A stretch of DNA of 55,512 nucleotides, taken from sequence record NZ_CP071303.1; one strand, written 5' to 3'. Shown here one piece after another: positions 21,771 through 44,626 of the stretch; positions within the stretch are counted from its first letter, which is position 1; every line of letters starts with the position of its first letter. This stretch comes from a plasmid. Both the position numbers and the translations under genes were made by a program. The notes beneath the pieces are model-generated. The model ran no database searches, was not told where the DNA came from, and saw only the letters and a list, made by a program, of their open reading frames with translations.

Positions 21771-23828
21771 ATGTCAAATAAAACTCATTCGTCTAATCAC
21801 GATGAAATGATGGATATGGAGCACGAAAACCATGAGATGCACAACATGCACAATATGGATAATATGCATGATATGGACAATATGGATATGATGAATCATG
21901 GAGGACACATGATGCATATGGGTGATATGAGTAAAAAGCTCAAAGTGGCTATCATTCTTATGATTCCGCTTCTACTCATTTCACCAATCGCGGGCTTTAC
22001 TATCCTTAAATTCCCCGGAAGTGAAATTTTGCAACTCATCCTTGGTACAATTATCTTCTTTTACTCTGGGACTCCTTTTTTTAGCGGAGCAAAAGGTGAA
22101 TTAAAAAGCCGTAAGCCAGCCATGATGATGCTGATTACAATGGGAATTACCGTTGCCTATGCTTATTCTGTTTATGCCACAATTATGAGTCTTAACGGAC
22201 ATATGGGCATGAACTTCTGGTTTGAACTGGCAACTTTAATTGTCATTATGTTGATTGGTCACCTGATTGAGATGAAAGCAATCATGGGTGCTGGCGATGC
22301 ATTGAAAGATTTAGCAAGCCTTGTTCCCAAAAAAGCTCACTTAAAAAGTGGGAAGGATGTGGAGCTTTCAGAACTAAAAGTTGGCGATTTGCTTTTAGTG
22401 AAAGAAAATGAAAAAATTCCTGCAGATGGCCTTATATTAAGTGAAGCGCTCGTTGATGAGTCAATGATTACTGGTGAAAGCCGAGCAGTCAATAAAAAAA
22501 CAAATGACCTTGTTTATGGTGGTTCCCTCAATCAAAACCAACCATTTGAGATGAAAGTCACAACCCTTGGAAAAGATTCATTTCTCAATCAAGTGGCCGA
22601 ATTAGTCAAGAAAGCCCAAGCTCAAAAATCTAATTTGGAAAATATGGCTGACAGAGTGGCCGGTTACCTTTTCTATGCTGCACTTATTGTCGGTATCTTC
22701 TCATTAATTTTTTGGACAATTAGTTCTAACTTTAGTTTTGCTCTACTTCTTGCGGTTTCTGTTTTTGTAATTGCATGTCCACACGCTTTAGGTCTTGCGG
22801 TTCCACTTGTTGTTTCTCGCTTAACCAGTATTTCTGCTAAAAATGGTTTATTAATTCAAAACAGAACCTCTTTGGAAAAAATAAATACAATTAAATATGC
22901 CTTAATGGATAAAACAGGAACATTAACTGACGGTAAGTTTATTGTCCGTAATGTTATTAATTTTACTGATGAAACAGACATTCTCCAAATCATGGCAGCA
23001 CTTGAAGGAAGTTCCACTCACCCGATTGCTCAATCAATCGTTTCATCTGCTAAACCTCTTGAAAATCTAAAAGTTGAAGCGGTTGAAAATATCCCAGGAG
23101 TTGGAATTAAAGGGCAAGTTAATCAAAACTTTTATCAAATTGTTAACTATAAATATCTTCGTGAAAATCAACTTTCTTATGATGAACAAAAGATTGCTCA
23201 ATATTTAGATTTAGGTTTAACTGTATCTTTCCTAATCAATGAACAACAAGATGTTTTAGGATTTATTGCCTTAGGAGATTCTCCTAAAGCAGACGCGAAA
23301 GCCTTTATTAATGGTTTATTAGCCCAAGGAATTACCCCTGTTATGCTCACGGGTGATAATAAAGAAACTGCTCAAAAAATTGCTAGTGCACTAAATATTC
23401 CCGAATTTAGAGCGGAATTAAAACCTGAAGATAAAGCAGAAATTGTGAAAGAATACCAAAAGAAAGCCGGCGTTCTTTTCATTGGTGATGGTGTCAATGA
23501 TTCCCCAGCTCTTGCAACTGCTACAATTGGTTTTGCGATTGGAGCAGGAACTTCGGTTGCTATCAGTACCGCTGATGTCGTCCTAGTTAACTCCAATCCA
23601 AGTGACGTCTTGGATATGATTAATATCTCCAAACGCATGCTTAGAAAAATGAAACAAAACCTCTGGTTTGGAGCAGGCTATAACATTATTGCTATTCCTG
23701 TTGCAGCGGGTATTCTTTATCCATTTACAGGAATTTATATTGACCCTCTCATTGCAGCAGTCCTGATGTCAATCTCAACCGTGATTGTCTCAATCAACGC
23801 GATGGGATTGAGGTATGATAAAAAATAG
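21771..23828 (+). CDS. copB: Copper-translocating P1B-3-type ATPase (CopB-like)
   Basis: His/Met-rich N-terminal tail, TM6 CPH motif (VIACPHALG), DKTGTLT, GDGVNDSPAL. Confidence 0.85.
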   Translation: MSNKTHSSNHDEMMDMEHENHEMHNMHNMDNMHDMDNMDMMNHGGHMMHMGDMSKKLKVAIILMIPLLLISPIAGFTILKFPGSEILQLILGTIIFFYSGTPFFSGAKGELKSRKPAMMMLITMGITVAYAYSVYATIMSLNGHMGMNFWFELATLIVIMLIGHLIEMKAIMGAGDALKDLASLVPKKAHLKSGKDVELSELKVGDLLLVKENEKIPADGLILSEALVDESMITGESRAVNKKTNDLVYGGSLNQNQPFEMKVTTLGKDSFLNQVAELVKKAQAQKSNLENMADRVAGYLFYAALIVGIFSLIFWTISSNFSFALLLAVSVFVIACPHALGLAVPLVVSRLTSISAKNGLLIQNRTSLEKINTIKYALMDKTGTLTDGKFIVRNVINFTDETDILQIMAALEGSSTHPIAQSIVSSAKPLENLKVEAVENIPGVGIKGQVNQNFYQIVNYKYLRENQLSYDEQKIAQYLDLGLTVSFLINEQQDVLGFIALGDSPKADAKAFINGLLAQGITPVMLTGDNKETAQKIASALNIPEFRAELKPEDKAEIVKEYQKKAGVLFIGDGVNDSPALATATIGFAIGAGTSVAISTADVVLVNSNPSDVLDMINISKRMLRKMKQNLWFGAGYNIIAIPVAAGILYPFTGIYIDPLIAAVLMSISTVIVSINAMGLRYDKK

Positions 23829-39883: not shown

Positions 39884-40321
39884 TTATCCCAAAAATTTGG
39901 TAATACTATCTGTAATATTTTGAATTTGTTCAGGGATATTTTCGGTTATATCTCCTGCAACATTTTGAATTTGTTCAGGGATATTTTCGGTTATACCTCC
40001 TGCAACATTTTGAATTTGTTCAGGGATATTTTCGGTTATACCTCCTGCAACATTTTGAATTTGTTCAGGAATATTTTCGGTTATACCTCCTGCAACATTT
40101 TGAATTTGTTCAGGGATATTTTCGGTTATACCTCCTGCAACATTTTGAATTTGTTCAGGAATATTTTCGGTTATACCTCCTGCAACATTTTGAATTTGTT
40201 CAGGGATATTTTCGGTTATACCTCCTGCAACGTTTTGAATTTGTTCAGGAATATTTTCGGTTATATTTCCCAAAATTTCTTGTGCTTGTCCAGTTAAGTT
40301 TTGAAATATATTTTTAAACAT
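39884..40321 (-). CDS. Acidic tandem-repeat protein (8 x 16-aa ITENIPEQIQNVAGG), translationally coupled downstream of the P1B-4 ATPase
   Basis: GGAG RBS 14 nt after the ATPase stop; the eight 48-bp DNA repeats are near-identical (two alternating variants) at 39915..40305. Confidence 0.5.
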   Translation of the reverse strand: MFKNIFQNLTGQAQEILGNITENIPEQIQNVAGGITENIPEQIQNVAGGITENIPEQIQNVAGGITENIPEQIQNVAGGITENIPEQIQNVAGGITENIPEQIQNVAGGITENIPEQIQNVAGDITENIPEQIQNITDSITKFLG

Positions 40322-40335
40322 TTATAGTTCTCCTT

Positions 40336-42225
40336 CTATATTTTTTTATTTGGCAATAATAATCTCAATGAATTTAGCAGAACAACCAGAGTACTTCCCT
40401 CATGCAATGTTATGCTTAGTACCACGGAGGCATTTTTCCAAAGACTAATATACACTAAAAATAGAACAACTAATAAAGCAAATATTATATTTTGAGTTAC
40501 AATATTTTTTAATCTTTTAGAAGTTTTATGTGCACTCACAAAATTCCCAAGGTCATTCTTCATTAATACTACATCTGCAGTTTCTATAGCTACATCTGTG
40601 CCATCTCCCATCGCAATACCTACATCTGCTACAGCAAGTGCTGGTGCATCGTTAACACCATCTCCGACCATCGCGGTTGGACCATATTTTTCTTTATTTT
40701 CATTTATTATTTTTGCCTTTTCATCAGGCATTACATTTGCCTGCACATCTCTTACACCTAACTGTTTTCCAATTGCCTTTCCTGTTAATACTGCATCACC
40801 AGTTATCATAATAGTTTTTATTTGATTCTTATTTAAATATTGAATTGCTGAAATTGCAGTCTTTTGAGGAGTATCTTGAATTGCTATTAAACCTTCGACT
40901 TTATCGTTAACAGCAATAAATACCACCGTTTTTCCTTCATTTTCAAAGTTTTCCTGTTTTTCAATCCATTCTTGACTTACGATTTTAAAAGCACTTGGTT
41001 TAGCAATTCGATAGCTTTCTCCTTGGTAGGTTGCGCTCAACCCTGTCCCAAGTTCATTTTCTACTTTGATATCGTAGTCAACTTTTTGAATTTCAAATTT
41101 ATTAACTATAGCATTTGCTAATGGGTGATTACTTTGCTTTTCCATTGCTACTAATGTATTTCTAAAGGATTCACCATCAAGTTCGGGATTAAAATAGAAA
41201 TCTACTACTTTTGGTTTTCCTTCTGTCAATGTTCCTGTTTTATCAAAAGCGACAGCTTTTAAATTAATTAAATTTGAAAGAAAATTACCACCTTTAAATA
41301 GTATTCCTTGTTTTGCTAAAGATGATATTCCAGCTAATGTTGCAGGAATTGCAGCAACAGCTAATGCACATGGTGAAGCAGAGACTAGAAAGACTAAACT
41401 TCTTGAAATTGTTTCCGTTAATGTCCAGCCTAAAAACATTGGAGAAAATATAATTAAAGCTAAAAATATTACTAATACTCCGTTGACATAGTGTGGTTCA
41501 AAACGTTTTATGAAATCGGCAGTTGGTGAAAGGTTATTTTGTGACTCTTCAACCATAGTTAATATTTTAGAAAATACTGTATCCTTGCTATCCTTGGATA
41601 CTCTCATAGTGAATGTACCTGTACCATTAATGGTTGAACCAAAAACAATATCACCAACATTTTTTTCTCGAGGAATACTTTCACCATTTATGGTTGACTC
41701 ATCAATGCTTGTTGAACCATTAAGTATGATACCATCAGTTGGAACTTGCGCTCCATTCAAAACTTGAAGTCTATCACCTATTTTTAATTTATCAATCGAA
41801 ACTACTTCTATATTTCCCTCATTATTAATTAAACGAGCTTCCGTAGGATTTAGTTCTATTAGTTTAGTAATTTCCCGTTTACTTTTTCCCTCAACATATT
41901 CTTCAAGAAAGTGTGCCCCTGCGAATATAAAGATTAGTAGAGCAGCTTCAACGGCTTCTCCTAAGAAAATTGCACCTATTGCGGCAAGTGTCATTAAAAT
42001 ATGCGTATTAGGAGTAAATCTTTTCTTTTTGACTGTCTCTTTTATGGTATCATCTATCCCTTCAAGCATTACATGATATCCCGATAAAATAGTTGCTATT
42101 ATGCTAATTAAAACTCTGACTGTACTTGATATTGGGAGTAATAATCCGATGATAAAAATTATTATTCCGATAAAATATAAGCGTAATGCTCTCTTTTCTT
42201 TTAAAGCTGTAATTAAGCTTTTCAT
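40336..42225 (-). CDS. Heavy-metal P-type ATPase, P1B-4 subgroup (Co/Zn/Cd-type), no N-terminal metal-binding domain
   Basis: TM6 SPC motif (VSASPCALAV), TM8 HEGST, DKTGTLT, GDGVNDAPAL; starts directly with TM helices. Confidence 0.8.
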   Translation of the reverse strand: MKSLITALKEKRALRLYFIGIIIFIIGLLLPISSTVRVLISIIATILSGYHVMLEGIDDTIKETVKKKRFTPNTHILMTLAAIGAIFLGEAVEAALLIFIFAGAHFLEEYVEGKSKREITKLIELNPTEARLINNEGNIEVVSIDKLKIGDRLQVLNGAQVPTDGIILNGSTSIDESTINGESIPREKNVGDIVFGSTINGTGTFTMRVSKDSKDTVFSKILTMVEESQNNLSPTADFIKRFEPHYVNGVLVIFLALIIFSPMFLGWTLTETISRSLVFLVSASPCALAVAAIPATLAGISSLAKQGILFKGGNFLSNLINLKAVAFDKTGTLTEGKPKVVDFYFNPELDGESFRNTLVAMEKQSNHPLANAIVNKFEIQKVDYDIKVENELGTGLSATYQGESYRIAKPSAFKIVSQEWIEKQENFENEGKTVVFIAVNDKVEGLIAIQDTPQKTAISAIQYLNKNQIKTIMITGDAVLTGKAIGKQLGVRDVQANVMPDEKAKIINENKEKYGPTAMVGDGVNDAPALAVADVGIAMGDGTDVAIETADVVLMKNDLGNFVSAHKTSKRLKNIVTQNIIFALLVVLFLVYISLWKNASVVLSITLHEGSTLVVLLNSLRLLLPNKKI

Positions 42226-42275
42226 ATTAGATACCTCTTCTAAATGATATAAATATTTTTATATGTTATACTGAT

Positions 42276-42306
42276 ATTATAAACTATACCTTTACGGTAA
42301 GGTCAA
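42276..42306 (-). promoter_or_regulatory. MerR-type promoter for the ATPase operon
   Basis: On the minus strand, TTGACC, then 19 bp (containing the imperfect dyad ACCTTACCGTAAAGGT), then TATAAT; divergent from the merR-like gene. Confidence 0.65.
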
Positions 42307-42315
42307 GGAGAAAGA

Positions 42316-43095
42316 ATGGAAAATAAAAATTATTTGACTATAGGAAAACTTAGCAGCTATTCTGGTATACATATCAAGGCTTTAAGATATTATGAGTCTA
42401 TCGGCATTTTACATCCAGCATTAATTGATGCTAATAATGGTTACCGCTATTACTCTCATGCACATATTCCATATGTGAAAATTATAAAATTATGTGCTGA
42501 TTATGGAATTCCTCTAGGGACTTTTAACGACTTTATTAAGTCCGAAACTGAGATCAATTTGATCGAAATCATTAGAAAAGCTAGTAACATATTAGAATTA
42601 AAAGAAAAGCAATTAAAAGAGGATAAGCAATTTTTAGAATATATACAAAATGAAATAAGCTTATCTCAAAAACTAGACTCATCAATTAATGTTGATTTAG
42701 AGCAAACTCATGAGGATTTTATCTTGATACCTTTCGATGATGTATTTTTTTCAAATAAGTACTATGATACAATTAATAAAACTATCTCTATGTTGAAGGA
42801 TTTAGAAATAGAATTTTTTAACCGAATTGGGTGTTATTATTCACTCCAGTATGGTAACTACGATAAATTTCTTGCCTTAAAAGTTCGGGGCCACTCATCA
42901 AAGTTAAAAAACATAAAAATTTTGCATATTGATCATGTCTGTGTTCAAGCACAACATATTGAACCTGATAAGATAACGGATGAATTAATTAGACTTAAAA
43001 AACTTAAGCAAAATTCTATATTAATTCTGGAAACTTACGAAAATCCGTACAACTTTTCAACGCCACATCTGGAATTAAGGATATTATTAAATTAA
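42316..43095 (+). CDS. MerR-family transcriptional regulator with an extended C-terminal domain
   Basis: N-terminal HTH TIGKLSSYSGIHIKALRYYESIGIL; 259 aa, longer than classical metal-sensing MerR regulators. Confidence 0.7.
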   Translation: MENKNYLTIGKLSSYSGIHIKALRYYESIGILHPALIDANNGYRYYSHAHIPYVKIIKLCADYGIPLGTFNDFIKSETEINLIEIIRKASNILELKEKQLKEDKQFLEYIQNEISLSQKLDSSINVDLEQTHEDFILIPFDDVFFSNKYYDTINKTISMLKDLEIEFFNRIGCYYSLQYGNYDKFLALKVRGHSSKLKNIKILHIDHVCVQAQHIEPDKITDELIRLKKLKQNSILILETYENPYNFSTPHLELRILLN

Positions 43096-43107
43096 TTGGC
43101 AGTTATC

Positions 43108-43150
43108 TAAAAATACAATACTAGATATGTATCTAGTATTGTATTTTTTA
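43108..43150. terminator. Bidirectional terminator
   Basis: Perfect palindrome AAAATACAATACTAGATA..TATCTAGTATTGTATTTT. Confidence 0.65.
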
Positions 43151-43515
43151 ATTTGGGAGTAGGAATACTACATTTTCTGGGCTAATATTTGTTCTAACAT
43201 TTCCCCAAGGAAATGTCCCACCATATCCAGCTTCTTGAACGTTAAATGTTCCATCTGGGTTCACCCCAGTTACTACTGCCACATGACCATATGGTGAGGT
43301 TCGAGCTGTAGTAGACGTTCCATATCCTGTAAAATGGTCAGTAAATCCTGAAGCAATAACTCCTGGAGCCAAATTTGTTCGACGCAAGACTCCTTGACTC
43401 ACACCATTTGTTCCCCAATAACCTCCATTACCATTTACTATGTTTGCTATATATATTCCTTTAGCGGCAAAGTACTGCCAAACAAAATCGGTACAGCCTC
43501 CGCCTGCATAAGGAT
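43148..43515 (-). pseudogene. CHAP-domain peptidoglycan hydrolase remnant, N-terminally truncated by IS6 insertion
   Basis: HPYAGGGCTDFVWQYF...YGHVAVV (CHAP Cys/His); the coding frame runs straight into the IS IR at 43516. Confidence 0.55.
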
Positions 43516-44324
43516 GGTTCTGTTGCAAAGTTCCCCATAACACCTGATTTATTGTAAAATGTAATAAAAAAGAATGCGAGGACAATAGATGAATCATTTT
43601 AAGGGCAAACAATTCCAAAAAGACGTGATTATTATCTCTGTTGGGTATTATCTTCGCTATAATTTGAGTTATCGTGATGTTCAAGAGATGTTATATGATC
43701 GTGGCATTAACGTTTCTCACACAACAATTTACCGTTGGGTTCAAGAATATGGTAAGCTGATCTATCAAATCTGGAAAAAGAAAAATAGACAGTCCTTTTA
43801 TTCGTGGAAAATGGACGAAACTTATATTAAAATTAAAGGGAAGTGGCATTATCTCTATCGTGCAATCGACTCAGAAGGCATGACACTGGATATTTGGCTA
43901 AGACGAAAGAGAAATACTCAGTCTGCTTATGCTTTCTTTAAACGACTATACAAGCAGTTTGGGGAACCGAAAGTTATCGTGACAGATAAAGCACCATCAA
44001 TTGCTAGTGCTTTTAGGAAGTTACAAAAGCAGGGGCTATACAGCGAAACTGAGCACCGGACAGTCAAGTATCTCAATAACTTAATTGAGCAAGATCATAG
44101 ACCTGTTAAACGTCGAAATAAACTTTATCAAAGTCTTCGTACTGCATCAACTACGATTAAGGGCATAGAAGCATTGAGAGGCATATACAAAAAGAACCGA
44201 AGAAATGGAACGCTCTTCGGCTTTTCGGCATCTACTGAAATTAAAGTTTTGATGGGTATACCAGCATAGTCAAAGTATCAGAATGGGACTTTTGTACTCA
44301 GTATTGAAACTTTGCAACAGAACC
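43516..44324 (+). mobile_element. IS6-family element, 809 bp (copy 4, divergent variant)
   Basis: IRL GGTTCTGTTGCAAAGTTC, IRR AAACTTTGCAACAGAACC; transposase 43589..44269. Confidence 0.9.
43589..44269 (+). CDS. IS6-family transposase
   Basis: 226 aa, MNHFKGKQFQKDVIIISVGYYLRYNLSYRDVQEML... Confidence 0.9.
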   Translation: MNHFKGKQFQKDVIIISVGYYLRYNLSYRDVQEMLYDRGINVSHTTIYRWVQEYGKLIYQIWKKKNRQSFYSWKMDETYIKIKGKWHYLYRAIDSEGMTLDIWLRRKRNTQSAYAFFKRLYKQFGEPKVIVTDKAPSIASAFRKLQKQGLYSETEHRTVKYLNNLIEQDHRPVKRRNKLYQSLRTASTTIKGIEALRGIYKKNRRNGTLFGFSASTEIKVLMGIPA

Positions 44325-44626
44325 CATTTTTGCGTTTGACTTGTAAGAACAGGATTGAATGAAGCCATACTGTTCGCATATTTTTAGTGAATGAACAAAC
44401 AAAATACGAGAGATTTTTTGTTCGTTCATCCATGGTTTTAGAAAAAAGAGGGACGATTTCGGAAGACGAAAATCGTCTCTTTTTTTCTTCTTTTTGTATG
44501 ACAAAAAGAAAGATCTTTTGCCTATTTTATTTTTATAAAATGGGTAGGTGGCGTTTGCTTTAAGCAAATCGACACAATCCAAAGGGGATAAAAGGGGAAA
44601 GTGAAACTTCCCCCTTTTCAAGCCAC

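Follow-up and report, generated by a model that had tools for sequence, protein, structure and literature searches.

A mobile ZccR/ZccE-like metal-pump cassette with a putative, copy-number-variable repeat gene

INTRODUCTION

Does an array of near-identical tandem repeats directly behind a metal-pump gene encode a protein, and to which regulatory system does the pump belong? Both questions are raised by positions 39884 to 43095 of a 55,512-nt plasmid stretch (sequence record NZ_CP071303.1; the whole stretch is called the window here). Three open reading frames (ORFs) lie there, at the coordinates given by an earlier, sequence-only reading: a repeat ORF and an ATPase gene on the minus strand, and a divergent MerR gene. 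That reading proposed a MerR-activated operon of a P1B-4-type ATPase with the repeat ORF as its tightly coupled distal gene, and the analysis reported here upholds this view. Judged by homology, the module is a new mobile member of the known ZccR/ZccE system, of the P1B-4 type, and the repeat ORF is probably a real, translated orphan gene that is co-transcribed with the pump. The module consists of the following features.

39884-40321, minus strand: orphan repeat gene, 145 amino acids, with a 19-residue head, eight 15-residue units (ITENIPEQIQNVAGG), and a 6-residue tail (ITKFLG)
39905-40264, minus strand: 45-bp tandem array, eight units in register, the last two degenerate
40322-40335, minus strand: 14-nt junction between the ATPase and repeat genes, after the ATPase TAG, with a GAAGGAG ribosome-binding site followed by ATG
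40336-42225, minus strand: gene for a ZccE-like, P1B-4-type metal-exporting P-type ATPase, 629 amino acids (TIGR01525, 557 bits; Pfam E1-E2_ATPase and Hydrolase)
42276-42306, minus strand: ATPase promoter and MerR operator, consisting of TTGACC, the 19-nt spacer TTACCGTAAAGGTATAGTT, and TATAAT; the -35 hexamer is immediately adjacent to the MerR ribosome-binding site
42316-43095, plus strand: gene for a ZccR-like MerR-family activator, 259 amino acids, with a helix-turn-helix, a long coiled coil, and a C-terminal GyrI-like domain (Pfam MerR/MerR_1 at residues 8 to 68)

RESULTS

A ZccE-like pump under a ZccR-like regulator

The ATPase carries the P-type core, namely DKTGT at residue 328, the GES motif of the actuator domain (here NGES, at 180), and the GDGVND hinge at 521. 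It also has the SPC (284) and HEGST (608) motifs and lacks an N-terminal metal-binding domain, as the sequence-only reading had stated: Pfam finds no HMA domain in it, and about 14 residues precede the first hydrophobic helix, which starts at about residue 15. Its best match among solved structures is sCoaT (PIB-4 structure 7qbz, E 1e-93), with whose motifs SPC, in the fourth core membrane helix (M4), and HEGST, in the last one (M6), are aligned. SPC and HEGST are present in all relatives. By this signature the ATPase is of the P1B-4 type, and its substrates would be divalent metals. A defect of the actuator motif, suggested by NGES in place of TGES, was considered and rejected, since members of this clade normally carry N or S at that position (T in ZccE). 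In four chromosomal relatives (L012, L013, L014, and L031) the pump starts with a short His-rich tail (MAHTHHHKK, MTHSHHK, MTQLHHHD), which is found neither in the plasmid pump nor in ZccE.

ZccE is an SPC-motif P1B ATPase of Streptococcus mutans without an N-terminal metal-binding motif, and zccR, a divergent 795-bp MerR gene, is needed for the Zn induction of zccE (PMC9387928). ZccR binds the intergenic region in a Zn-dependent manner, binding being abolished by TPEN and restored by Zn, and the loss of ZccE, which protects primarily against Zn, leads to sensitivity to Zn, Cd, Co, and Cu (PMC9387928). The published primers give the ends of ZccR (MKKTQQLLTIGQLA... and ...PHLEMQY), and the operator (CACAAATAGCTTGACCTTCCCTTTAAGG) is contained in the primer table, including a primer for the electrophoretic mobility shift assay (PMC9387928). 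One of the loci that we collected, L052, matches 9 of the 12 published zccE/zccR primers exactly and the other three with one or two mismatches, which identifies it as a zccE-zccR locus of the S. mutans type. Over 612 amino acids the window ATPase shares 60% identity with the L052 ZccE, and the window MerR protein is 41% identical to the L052 ZccR over 254 of its 259 residues (E 1.5e-76), with a C-terminal PHLE(L/M) motif in both regulators. The L052 promoter reads CTTGACCTTCCCTTTAAGGTATGGTTTATAGT and has a 19-nt spacer, as in the window.

The pairing of pump and MerR gene and the operator between them are kept wherever a MerR gene accompanies the pump, at ATPase identities of 59 to 79%. Such paired loci are found in Pseudolactococcus piscium, P. 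plantarum, Streptococcus azizii, Streptococcus sp. HF-1907, and several uncultured relatives (loci compared: L012, L013, L014, L027, L031, and L049 to L054). Matches of the MerR protein also named S. suis, S. dysgalactiae, and S. parauberis. More distant pumps (52 to 57%) in Enterococcus, Lacticaseibacillus, and Amphibacillus are without a ZccR-like MerR; directly downstream of the pump in Lacticaseibacillus and E. raffinosus stands a small ORF which, read by eye, resembles ArsR/SmtB and points to a metal role of the clade. The ZccR/ZccE pair was described in 2022 as peculiar to S. mutans and put forward as a drug target specific for that species (PMC9387928). By the homologies found here it is not unique to that species, and the family is widespread on chromosomes of Streptococcaceae. 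The sequence-only reading knew of no described P1B-4 ATPase coupled to a repetitive acidic protein, and no such description was found here; the pump and regulator pair by itself has had a described relative, ZccE/ZccR, since that publication.

Because it has a 19-nt spacer, the promoter falls outside the standard promoter scan and was checked by reading and pattern match. The TTGACC-19 nt-TATAAT promoter announced for the minus strand is present (42306 to 42276), and its spacer holds an imperfect dyad, ACCTTAC-CG-TAAAGGT. Taken as a bare pattern, it lies within chance for the AT-rich window, where 0.69 matches would be expected if one mismatch is tolerated. Chance does not account for where it lies, nor for the fact that every related locus has kept it together with the 19-nt spacer. 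Each of 19 related loci contains a single copy of the motif CTTGACCTTnCnnTnAnnGTATAGTTTAT, in the corresponding position, and near-identical operator variants are found in L036 and in the S. mutans-type locus.

The regulator matches known structures by sequence over its N-terminal 119 residues only, BmrR being the best, and no GyrI domain was found in it by Pfam. An AlphaFold2 (AF2) model, built with 37 homologues in the alignment, reached a predicted local distance difference test score (pLDDT) of 92.9. Foldseek searches with this model returned BmrR as a full-length match (E 3e-11, TM score 0.6 to 0.7), then EcmrR and BrlR, and the C-terminal domain was matched to SbmC/GyrI and to the C domains of EcmrR and BrlR. 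According to the model, the regulator is a BmrR-like MerR protein with a GyrI-like effector domain, which explains why this MerR protein had looked odd. A short Cys-loop metal sensor of the ZntR/CadR/CueR kind was rejected on the basis of length (259 residues) and of profile scores of 24 to 37 bits against cut-offs of 143 to 244; the protein lacks the metal loop of such sensors, and its C-terminal region is modelled as a GyrI-like domain.

Five residues of the C-terminal domain (H214, E239, E242, H251, and E253) are invariant in the ZccR-like subfamily (24 of 24) and rare or absent among the 13 more remote MerR proteins that were aligned. They are candidates for a metal site in the GyrI-like domain. 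The effector is probably a metal, because ZccR is reported to be Zn-responsive and because of these subfamily-invariant His and Glu residues. The sequence-only reading was correct in setting the 259-residue protein apart from CadR/ZntR sensors, as its length and its BmrR-like fold show, but the non-metal effector it suspected is not supported in view of a Zn-responsive homologue of 41% identity that has the same operator. GyrI-like domains are better known for drug binding.

A tandem-repeat ORF coupled to the pump gene

The eight repeats noted earlier are indeed present, in register, with a unit of 45 bp and 15 residues; the 48 bp and 16 residues first given were a miscount, the peptide quoted with them having 15 letters. 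Tandem Repeats Finder (TRF) delimits the array at 39910 to 40265, with a period of 45, 7.9 copies, 97% identity, and a score of 663. The 14-nt gap and the GGAG ribosome-binding site described in front of the 145-residue ORF were confirmed, the latter as GAAGGAG, and no strong promoter-like or terminator-like site was found in the junction. In the other allele lineage (L001 and L002), an extra base in an A-run, corresponding to window positions 40336 to 40350, lengthens the pump by 5 residues (634 versus 629), and the TAA stop of this 634-residue form abuts the ATG of the repeat gene.

The copy number across records, which the sequence-only reading had proposed to compare, proved to be variable: complete records have 4, 6, 7, 8, 9, or 13 units, with ORFs of 85 to 220 amino acids. 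As the 45-bp unit keeps the frame, only the length of the protein changes with copy number. The suggestion of a recently expanded or contingency locus stands as regards variable number; a phase-variable on/off switch was rejected, because the unit is a multiple of three and all alleles of 4 to 13 units are in frame. Short-read metagenome assemblies (L055 to L070) contain 1 to 6 units only, and several of their contigs end within the array; copy numbers from such assemblies are unreliable, since the array may be collapsed.

None of the 11 alleles from plasmids or genomes has a disrupted repeat ORF, and the ORF is likewise intact in all metagenome copies that do not run into a contig end, about 25 alleles in total; its ribosome-binding site, ATG, 19-residue head, and 6-residue tail are kept in both allele lineages. 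Among the 86 units of the 11 alleles we distinguished 12 unit types. Their five polymorphic interior sites are all third-position synonymous transitions, and the same five changes are nonsynonymous in the other two sense frames. Synonymous transitions make up 14 of the 45 that are possible, so that five out of five has a probability of ~0.003. Amino acid changes in the repeats are limited to the last two units and two singletons. The ATPase differs little from one lineage to the other (99.2% identity, with 13 synonymous and 3 nonsynonymous codon differences) and the promoter region not at all (100%), and the 213-nt spacer 3' of the repeat ORF is only 87% identical, with indels. In plasmid pIBB-JZK the repeat ORF is whole, with an insertion sequence (IS) element 12 nt beyond its stop codon. 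The repeat ORF is probably a real gene because its interior variation is all synonymous while the adjacent spacer has diverged by 13%.

The repeat gene follows the pump in every near-identical copy of the module, and the survey for pump and repeat ORF together in other genomes, a check proposed with the sequence-only reading, led back to this near-identical plasmid-borne lineage only. A homologue search with the 145-residue protein, likewise proposed there, gave unrelated repeat proteins and fragments of the same gene. A word-indexed protein search recovered one truncated 80-residue fragment, and HMMER returned 622 hits among 1.8 billion representative proteins; every hit inspected was either an unrelated protein with repeats or low complexity or a truncated piece of this gene. 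None of seven repeat-protein alleles was present in the protein collection by exact look-up, and protein databases contain the gene as truncated fragments only. A degenerate DNA scan of metagenome contigs for ENIPEQIQN identified 16 contigs, all with this gene behind this pump. Pfam, NCBIfam, PHROGs, and PADLOC assigned no credible family to the repeat protein, giving only repeat-inflated or low-scoring hits, and no similarity to a repeat precursor emerged from aligning the regions downstream of diverged pumps.

A literature search by protein accession and topic led only to the annotation of plasmid pLG42, the pSMA198 paper not covering the cluster, and no description of a P1B-4-type pump paired with such a repeat gene was found. 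In pLG42 the repeat gene (orf27) was annotated as "no relevant homology / RESA-like" and thereby likened to a malarial antigen; this likening is wrong.

Another small repeat ORF was observed behind a related pump. In L036 to L038 (uncultured; Logan SRR25399794), whose pump is 73% identical to that of the window, the pump is followed by an 83-residue ORF (L036, 4758 to 5009) that is rich in His, Asp, and Arg, has a GGAGG site, and contains approximately three 20-residue repeats (DDFTNDRHERTKHGGDKHHR...). It has no family match and is unrelated to the repeat gene, of which it is a possible metal-binding positional analogue.

Character of the predicted repeat protein

The repeat protein is acidic, as had been noted, with 19 acidic and 2 basic residues and an isoelectric point of 4.05. 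Lys occurs at positions 3 and 142 only and Arg is absent, so that trypsin would release a single peptide of about 139 residues, one that routine proteomics would overlook. It contains no Cys, His, Trp, or Tyr, and no signal peptide or membrane helix was seen in it by inspection. Hydrophobic residues occupy positions 1, 5, 9, and 12 of the unit, giving a hydrophobic moment of 0.56 at 100 degrees, within the top 0.9% of shuffles, and each unit reads like a helix with N-I-P-E-Q as its N-cap and Gly-Gly as its C-cap. AF2 run without an alignment yielded an all-helix model, one long helix. Weak, sub-threshold profile matches were all to long-helix proteins, namely ApoLp-III, tape measure proteins, and ZorA tails. 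The protein is most likely cytoplasmic and would form an acidic amphipathic-helix array or a rod that lengthens with unit number.

Plasmid setting of the module

The plasmid, of a dairy Lactococcus kind, is a mosaic of the lactococcal theta type, with 22-bp iterons at 51643 to 51721, and IS6-family ends are abundant in the window (14 terminal repeats). The features that surround the module are as follows.

38611-39419, plus strand: IS6-family (IS1216-like) element that borders the module at its repeat-gene end, with terminal repeats GGTTCTGTTGCAAAGTTT at 38611 and 39402-39419 and a transposase matching NF033587 (262 bits)
39511-39671, no strand assigned: second variable-number repeat found by TRF, 12 bp in 13.4 copies (GGTCRGTATYRR), downstream of the terminator-like hairpin
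39682-39704, minus strand: terminator-like hairpin followed by a T7 run, at which the operon transcript probably ends, kept with stem changes in the other allele lineage
About 43148-43515 (listed also as 43148-43684): remnant of a CHAP-domain gene (Usp45/LcoB-like), cut by IS6 at 43516
43516-44324, plus strand: second IS6-family element, in the same orientation as the first, bounding the module on the MerR side and truncating the CHAP-domain gene

At the position matching the remnant, an L. piscium plasmid (L001) has a full-length CHAP gene of 429 residues. The copy number of the 12-bp array is 0, 2, 5, 6, 7, 13, or 14 elsewhere. Several of its frames are open, its unit variants are nonsynonymous, and some records annotate a "hypothetical protein" there; the array is probably noncoding. 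An Rfam scan of 38500 to 44500 revealed nothing real.

Near-identical modules are carried by about 14 plasmids from Lactococcus lactis, L. garvieae, L. piscium, Leuconostoc lactis, and Lactiplantibacillus plantarum and are also found in draft genomes of L. formosensis and L. hircilactis, with IS junctions that vary from record to record. In two Lactococcus plasmids, IS982 has been inserted between the MerR operator/promoter and the pump (L008, 5508 to 6398; L009, 5150 to 6040); the MerR gene has been lost in L009, and the pump and repeat gene are intact in both. The window plasmid encodes a second metal pump at 21771 to 23828, a CopB-like copper ATPase with a CPH motif whose His/Met-rich N terminus is encoded by a 9-bp repeat (TRF, 21831 to 21888). 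A ribosomal-protection tetracycline resistance gene of the Tet(M)/Tet(S) type (35629 to 37569, 1269 bits) lies ~2 kb from the module, placing metal and antibiotic determinants on one IS6-rich plasmid.

DISCUSSION

A model of the cassette

We think it likely that the region is a ZccR/ZccE-type divalent-metal efflux cassette between two IS6 elements, joined by a lineage-specific extra gene. A dimer of the MerR-family protein would sit on the dyad in the over-long 19-nt spacer, as suggested by its family and by ZccR. Upon binding of the effector to the C-terminal GyrI-like domain, the spacer would be untwisted, which would make the -35 and -10 hexamers usable for RNA polymerase. The most likely effector is Zn(II) or a related divalent metal, for which the invariant His and Glu residues would be the ligands. 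One mRNA would encode both the pump and the repeat protein. The P1B-4-type ATPase may export Zn, and probably also Co and Cd, from the cytoplasm, and the acidic protein of 15-residue amphipathic-helix units would be made from an ATG 0 or 14 nt past the pump stop, behind a strong ribosome-binding site. The repeat gene appears to have arisen in the plasmid lineage, its units drifting by slippage or unequal recombination in frame-preserving 45-bp steps. Our best guess is that its product is a dispensable cytoplasmic accessory of the pump, either a helical protein binding the membrane surface or a low-affinity cation buffer.

Several observations weigh against this model, most of them at the repeat gene. 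The gene is absent after 17 distinct homologous pumps of 52 to 79% identity (the loci at 79% and 68% and that of S. mutans among them, all on contigs that continue beyond the pump stop), and no homologue was found outside a lineage of less than 1% ATPase divergence; an open frame kept over such a short time is weak evidence for coding. The clearly noncoding 12-bp array, 230 nt away, varies as much (0 to 14 copies), so that copy-number variation alone is uninformative on function, and the antisense strand of the 45-bp array is also open. The five AF2 models of the repeat protein disagree (mean pLDDT 31 to 78, predicted TM score 0.28), and its lack of Cys and His makes specific binding of soft metals unlikely. 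The IS982-split plasmids show that the cassette easily decays, is lost, or is silenced. Finally, in the sole experiment on a module-carrying plasmid, the curing of pLG42 (a 13-unit allele) from L. garvieae caused no change in any metal minimum inhibitory concentration (MIC). Most of these MICs were off-scale (>2048 µg/ml) in rich medium, with Co at 64 and Hg at 2 µg/ml in both strains, and the L. garvieae chromosome encodes many transporters.

Much of this is what one would expect if the repeat "gene" were a nonfunctional minisatellite in the 3' untranslated region of the pump mRNA, its frame open because a 45-bp unit is free of stop codons and its translation incidental. The search of 1.8 billion representatives that yielded no homologues but unrelated repeat proteins and truncated fragments, the missing ORF at all diverged homologous loci, the second variable repeat nearby, the open antisense strand, and the curing of pLG42 without a phenotype all speak for such an interpretation. 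We consider it doubtful all the same, because synonymous change at all five interior polymorphisms in this frame, and at none of the five in the other two sense frames, speaks against it. So do the retention of the ribosome-binding site, ATG, head, and tail in both lineages next to a spacer that is 13% diverged with indels, the stop-start coupling to the ATPase, and the count of zero disrupted alleles among ~25. Evenly spaced, nearly identical direct repeats on a plasmid might also act as DNA, for example as an iteron or a centromere-like protein-binding site to which the ORF is irrelevant. We give this almost no credence, since the array moves with the pump between unrelated replicons, in an IS-bounded unit away from the replication region with its iterons, and variation confined to third codon positions is unexpected for a binding site.

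Other alternatives concern the metal and keep the operon as it is. P1B-4 pumps are promiscuous, transporting Co, Zn, Cd, Ni, and Fe, and the SPC/HEGST signature and the PIB-4 structure as best match would also suit Fe(II) or Co(II) as the substrate, as with the P1B-4 pumps PfeT, PmtA, and CtpD, and a role in iron or cobalt detoxification in dairy and meat niches. We regard this as unlikely, given that the only characterized close relative, at 60% identity, protects primarily against Zn and that the Co MIC was the same after pLG42 had been cured. The regulator could also sense an organic ligand, such as a cationic drug or an electrophile, in the manner of BmrR, so that the pump is induced by nonmetal stress: the solved structures nearest to it are those of drug sensors (BmrR, EcmrR, and BrlR), and it is without the Cys-containing metal loop of CueR and ZntR, whose models score far under their cut-offs. 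This appears highly improbable in the light of ZccR, a homologue that mediates Zn induction and whose DNA binding is lost with TPEN and regained with Zn (PMC9387928). The five His and Glu residues that are invariant in the subfamily and rare or absent in 13 distant MerR proteins also argue against an organic ligand, as does the fact that the gene regulated is always that of a metal pump.

Implications

Under the preferred reading, the repeat gene offers a clean natural example of an orphan coding sequence that varies in repeat number and is apparently under purifying selection. It would lend itself to strain typing by way of dairy plasmids and would be a candidate for the study of gene birth. 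It is tempting to go further and to regard the ORF as young, possibly born de novo from repeat expansion 3' of a mobilized ZccE-type operon, and as encoding a length-tunable, acidic, helical pump partner, whether a cytoplasmic cation buffer or a partner at the membrane surface; we hold this extended scenario to be quite unlikely. If it were true, the His/Asp-rich ORF of L036 would suggest a recurrent recruitment of small repeat proteins that stand in for the missing N-terminal metal-binding domain. IS6-bounded units carry the family itself from plasmid to plasmid in Lactococcus lactis, L. garvieae, L. piscium, Leuconostoc, and Lactiplantibacillus, and the family offers a testable model of metal sensing by a GyrI-like domain through conserved His and Glu residues, a mode distinct from that of MerR sensors with a Cys loop. 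Its practical importance is modest, and no effect was seen in the one phenotypic test published for a module plasmid.

Comparison with known systems

Short periodic amphipathic units like those of the repeat protein also make up apolipophorin-III, LEA-type proteins, and segments of phage tape measure proteins. There is no significant homology to any of them, the period here is 15 residues with a Pro and a Gly-Gly in each unit, and the genetic context is another one; the resemblance is one of sequence character only. The pump shares with sCoaT of Sulfitobacter (PDB 7qbz/7qc0) the SPC motif in M4, the HEGST motif in M6, and the absence of a classical metal-binding domain. The sequence similarity between the two is distant, sCoaT comes from another phylum, and neither a MerR partner nor a repeat gene is known for it.

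With ZntR, CadR, and CueR the regulator has in common the N-terminal helix-turn-helix and the logic of activation at a long-spacer promoter. Those sensors have 127 to 141 residues and hold the metal by Cys/His at the end of the dimerization helix, whereas the regulator described here is twice as long and lacks the metal loop. It is closer in architecture to BmrR of Bacillus subtilis and to EcmrR and BrlR, with which it shares the three-part organization and the fold. These three proteins act at promoters with a 19-bp spacer. Identity is about 20%, and BmrR binds lipophilic cations and controls a drug pump, whereas the target of the present regulator is a metal pump, and invariant His and Glu residues are found in its pocket region.

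The closest known counterpart is the ZccE/ZccR pair of S. mutans. Both systems combine a divergent MerR activator of ~260 residues with an SPC-motif P1B ATPase that lacks an N-terminal metal-binding domain. They also share the operator CTTGACCTTcCCtTtAAGGTAT.GTTTAT with its 19-nt spacer and a regulator start codon a few bases from the -35 hexamer. Unlike the chromosomal S. mutans pair, the window copy is plasmid-borne and flanked by IS6 elements, and it is without the basic N-terminal tail; a terminator and a tRNA gene lie downstream of zccE, the repeat gene downstream of the window pump.

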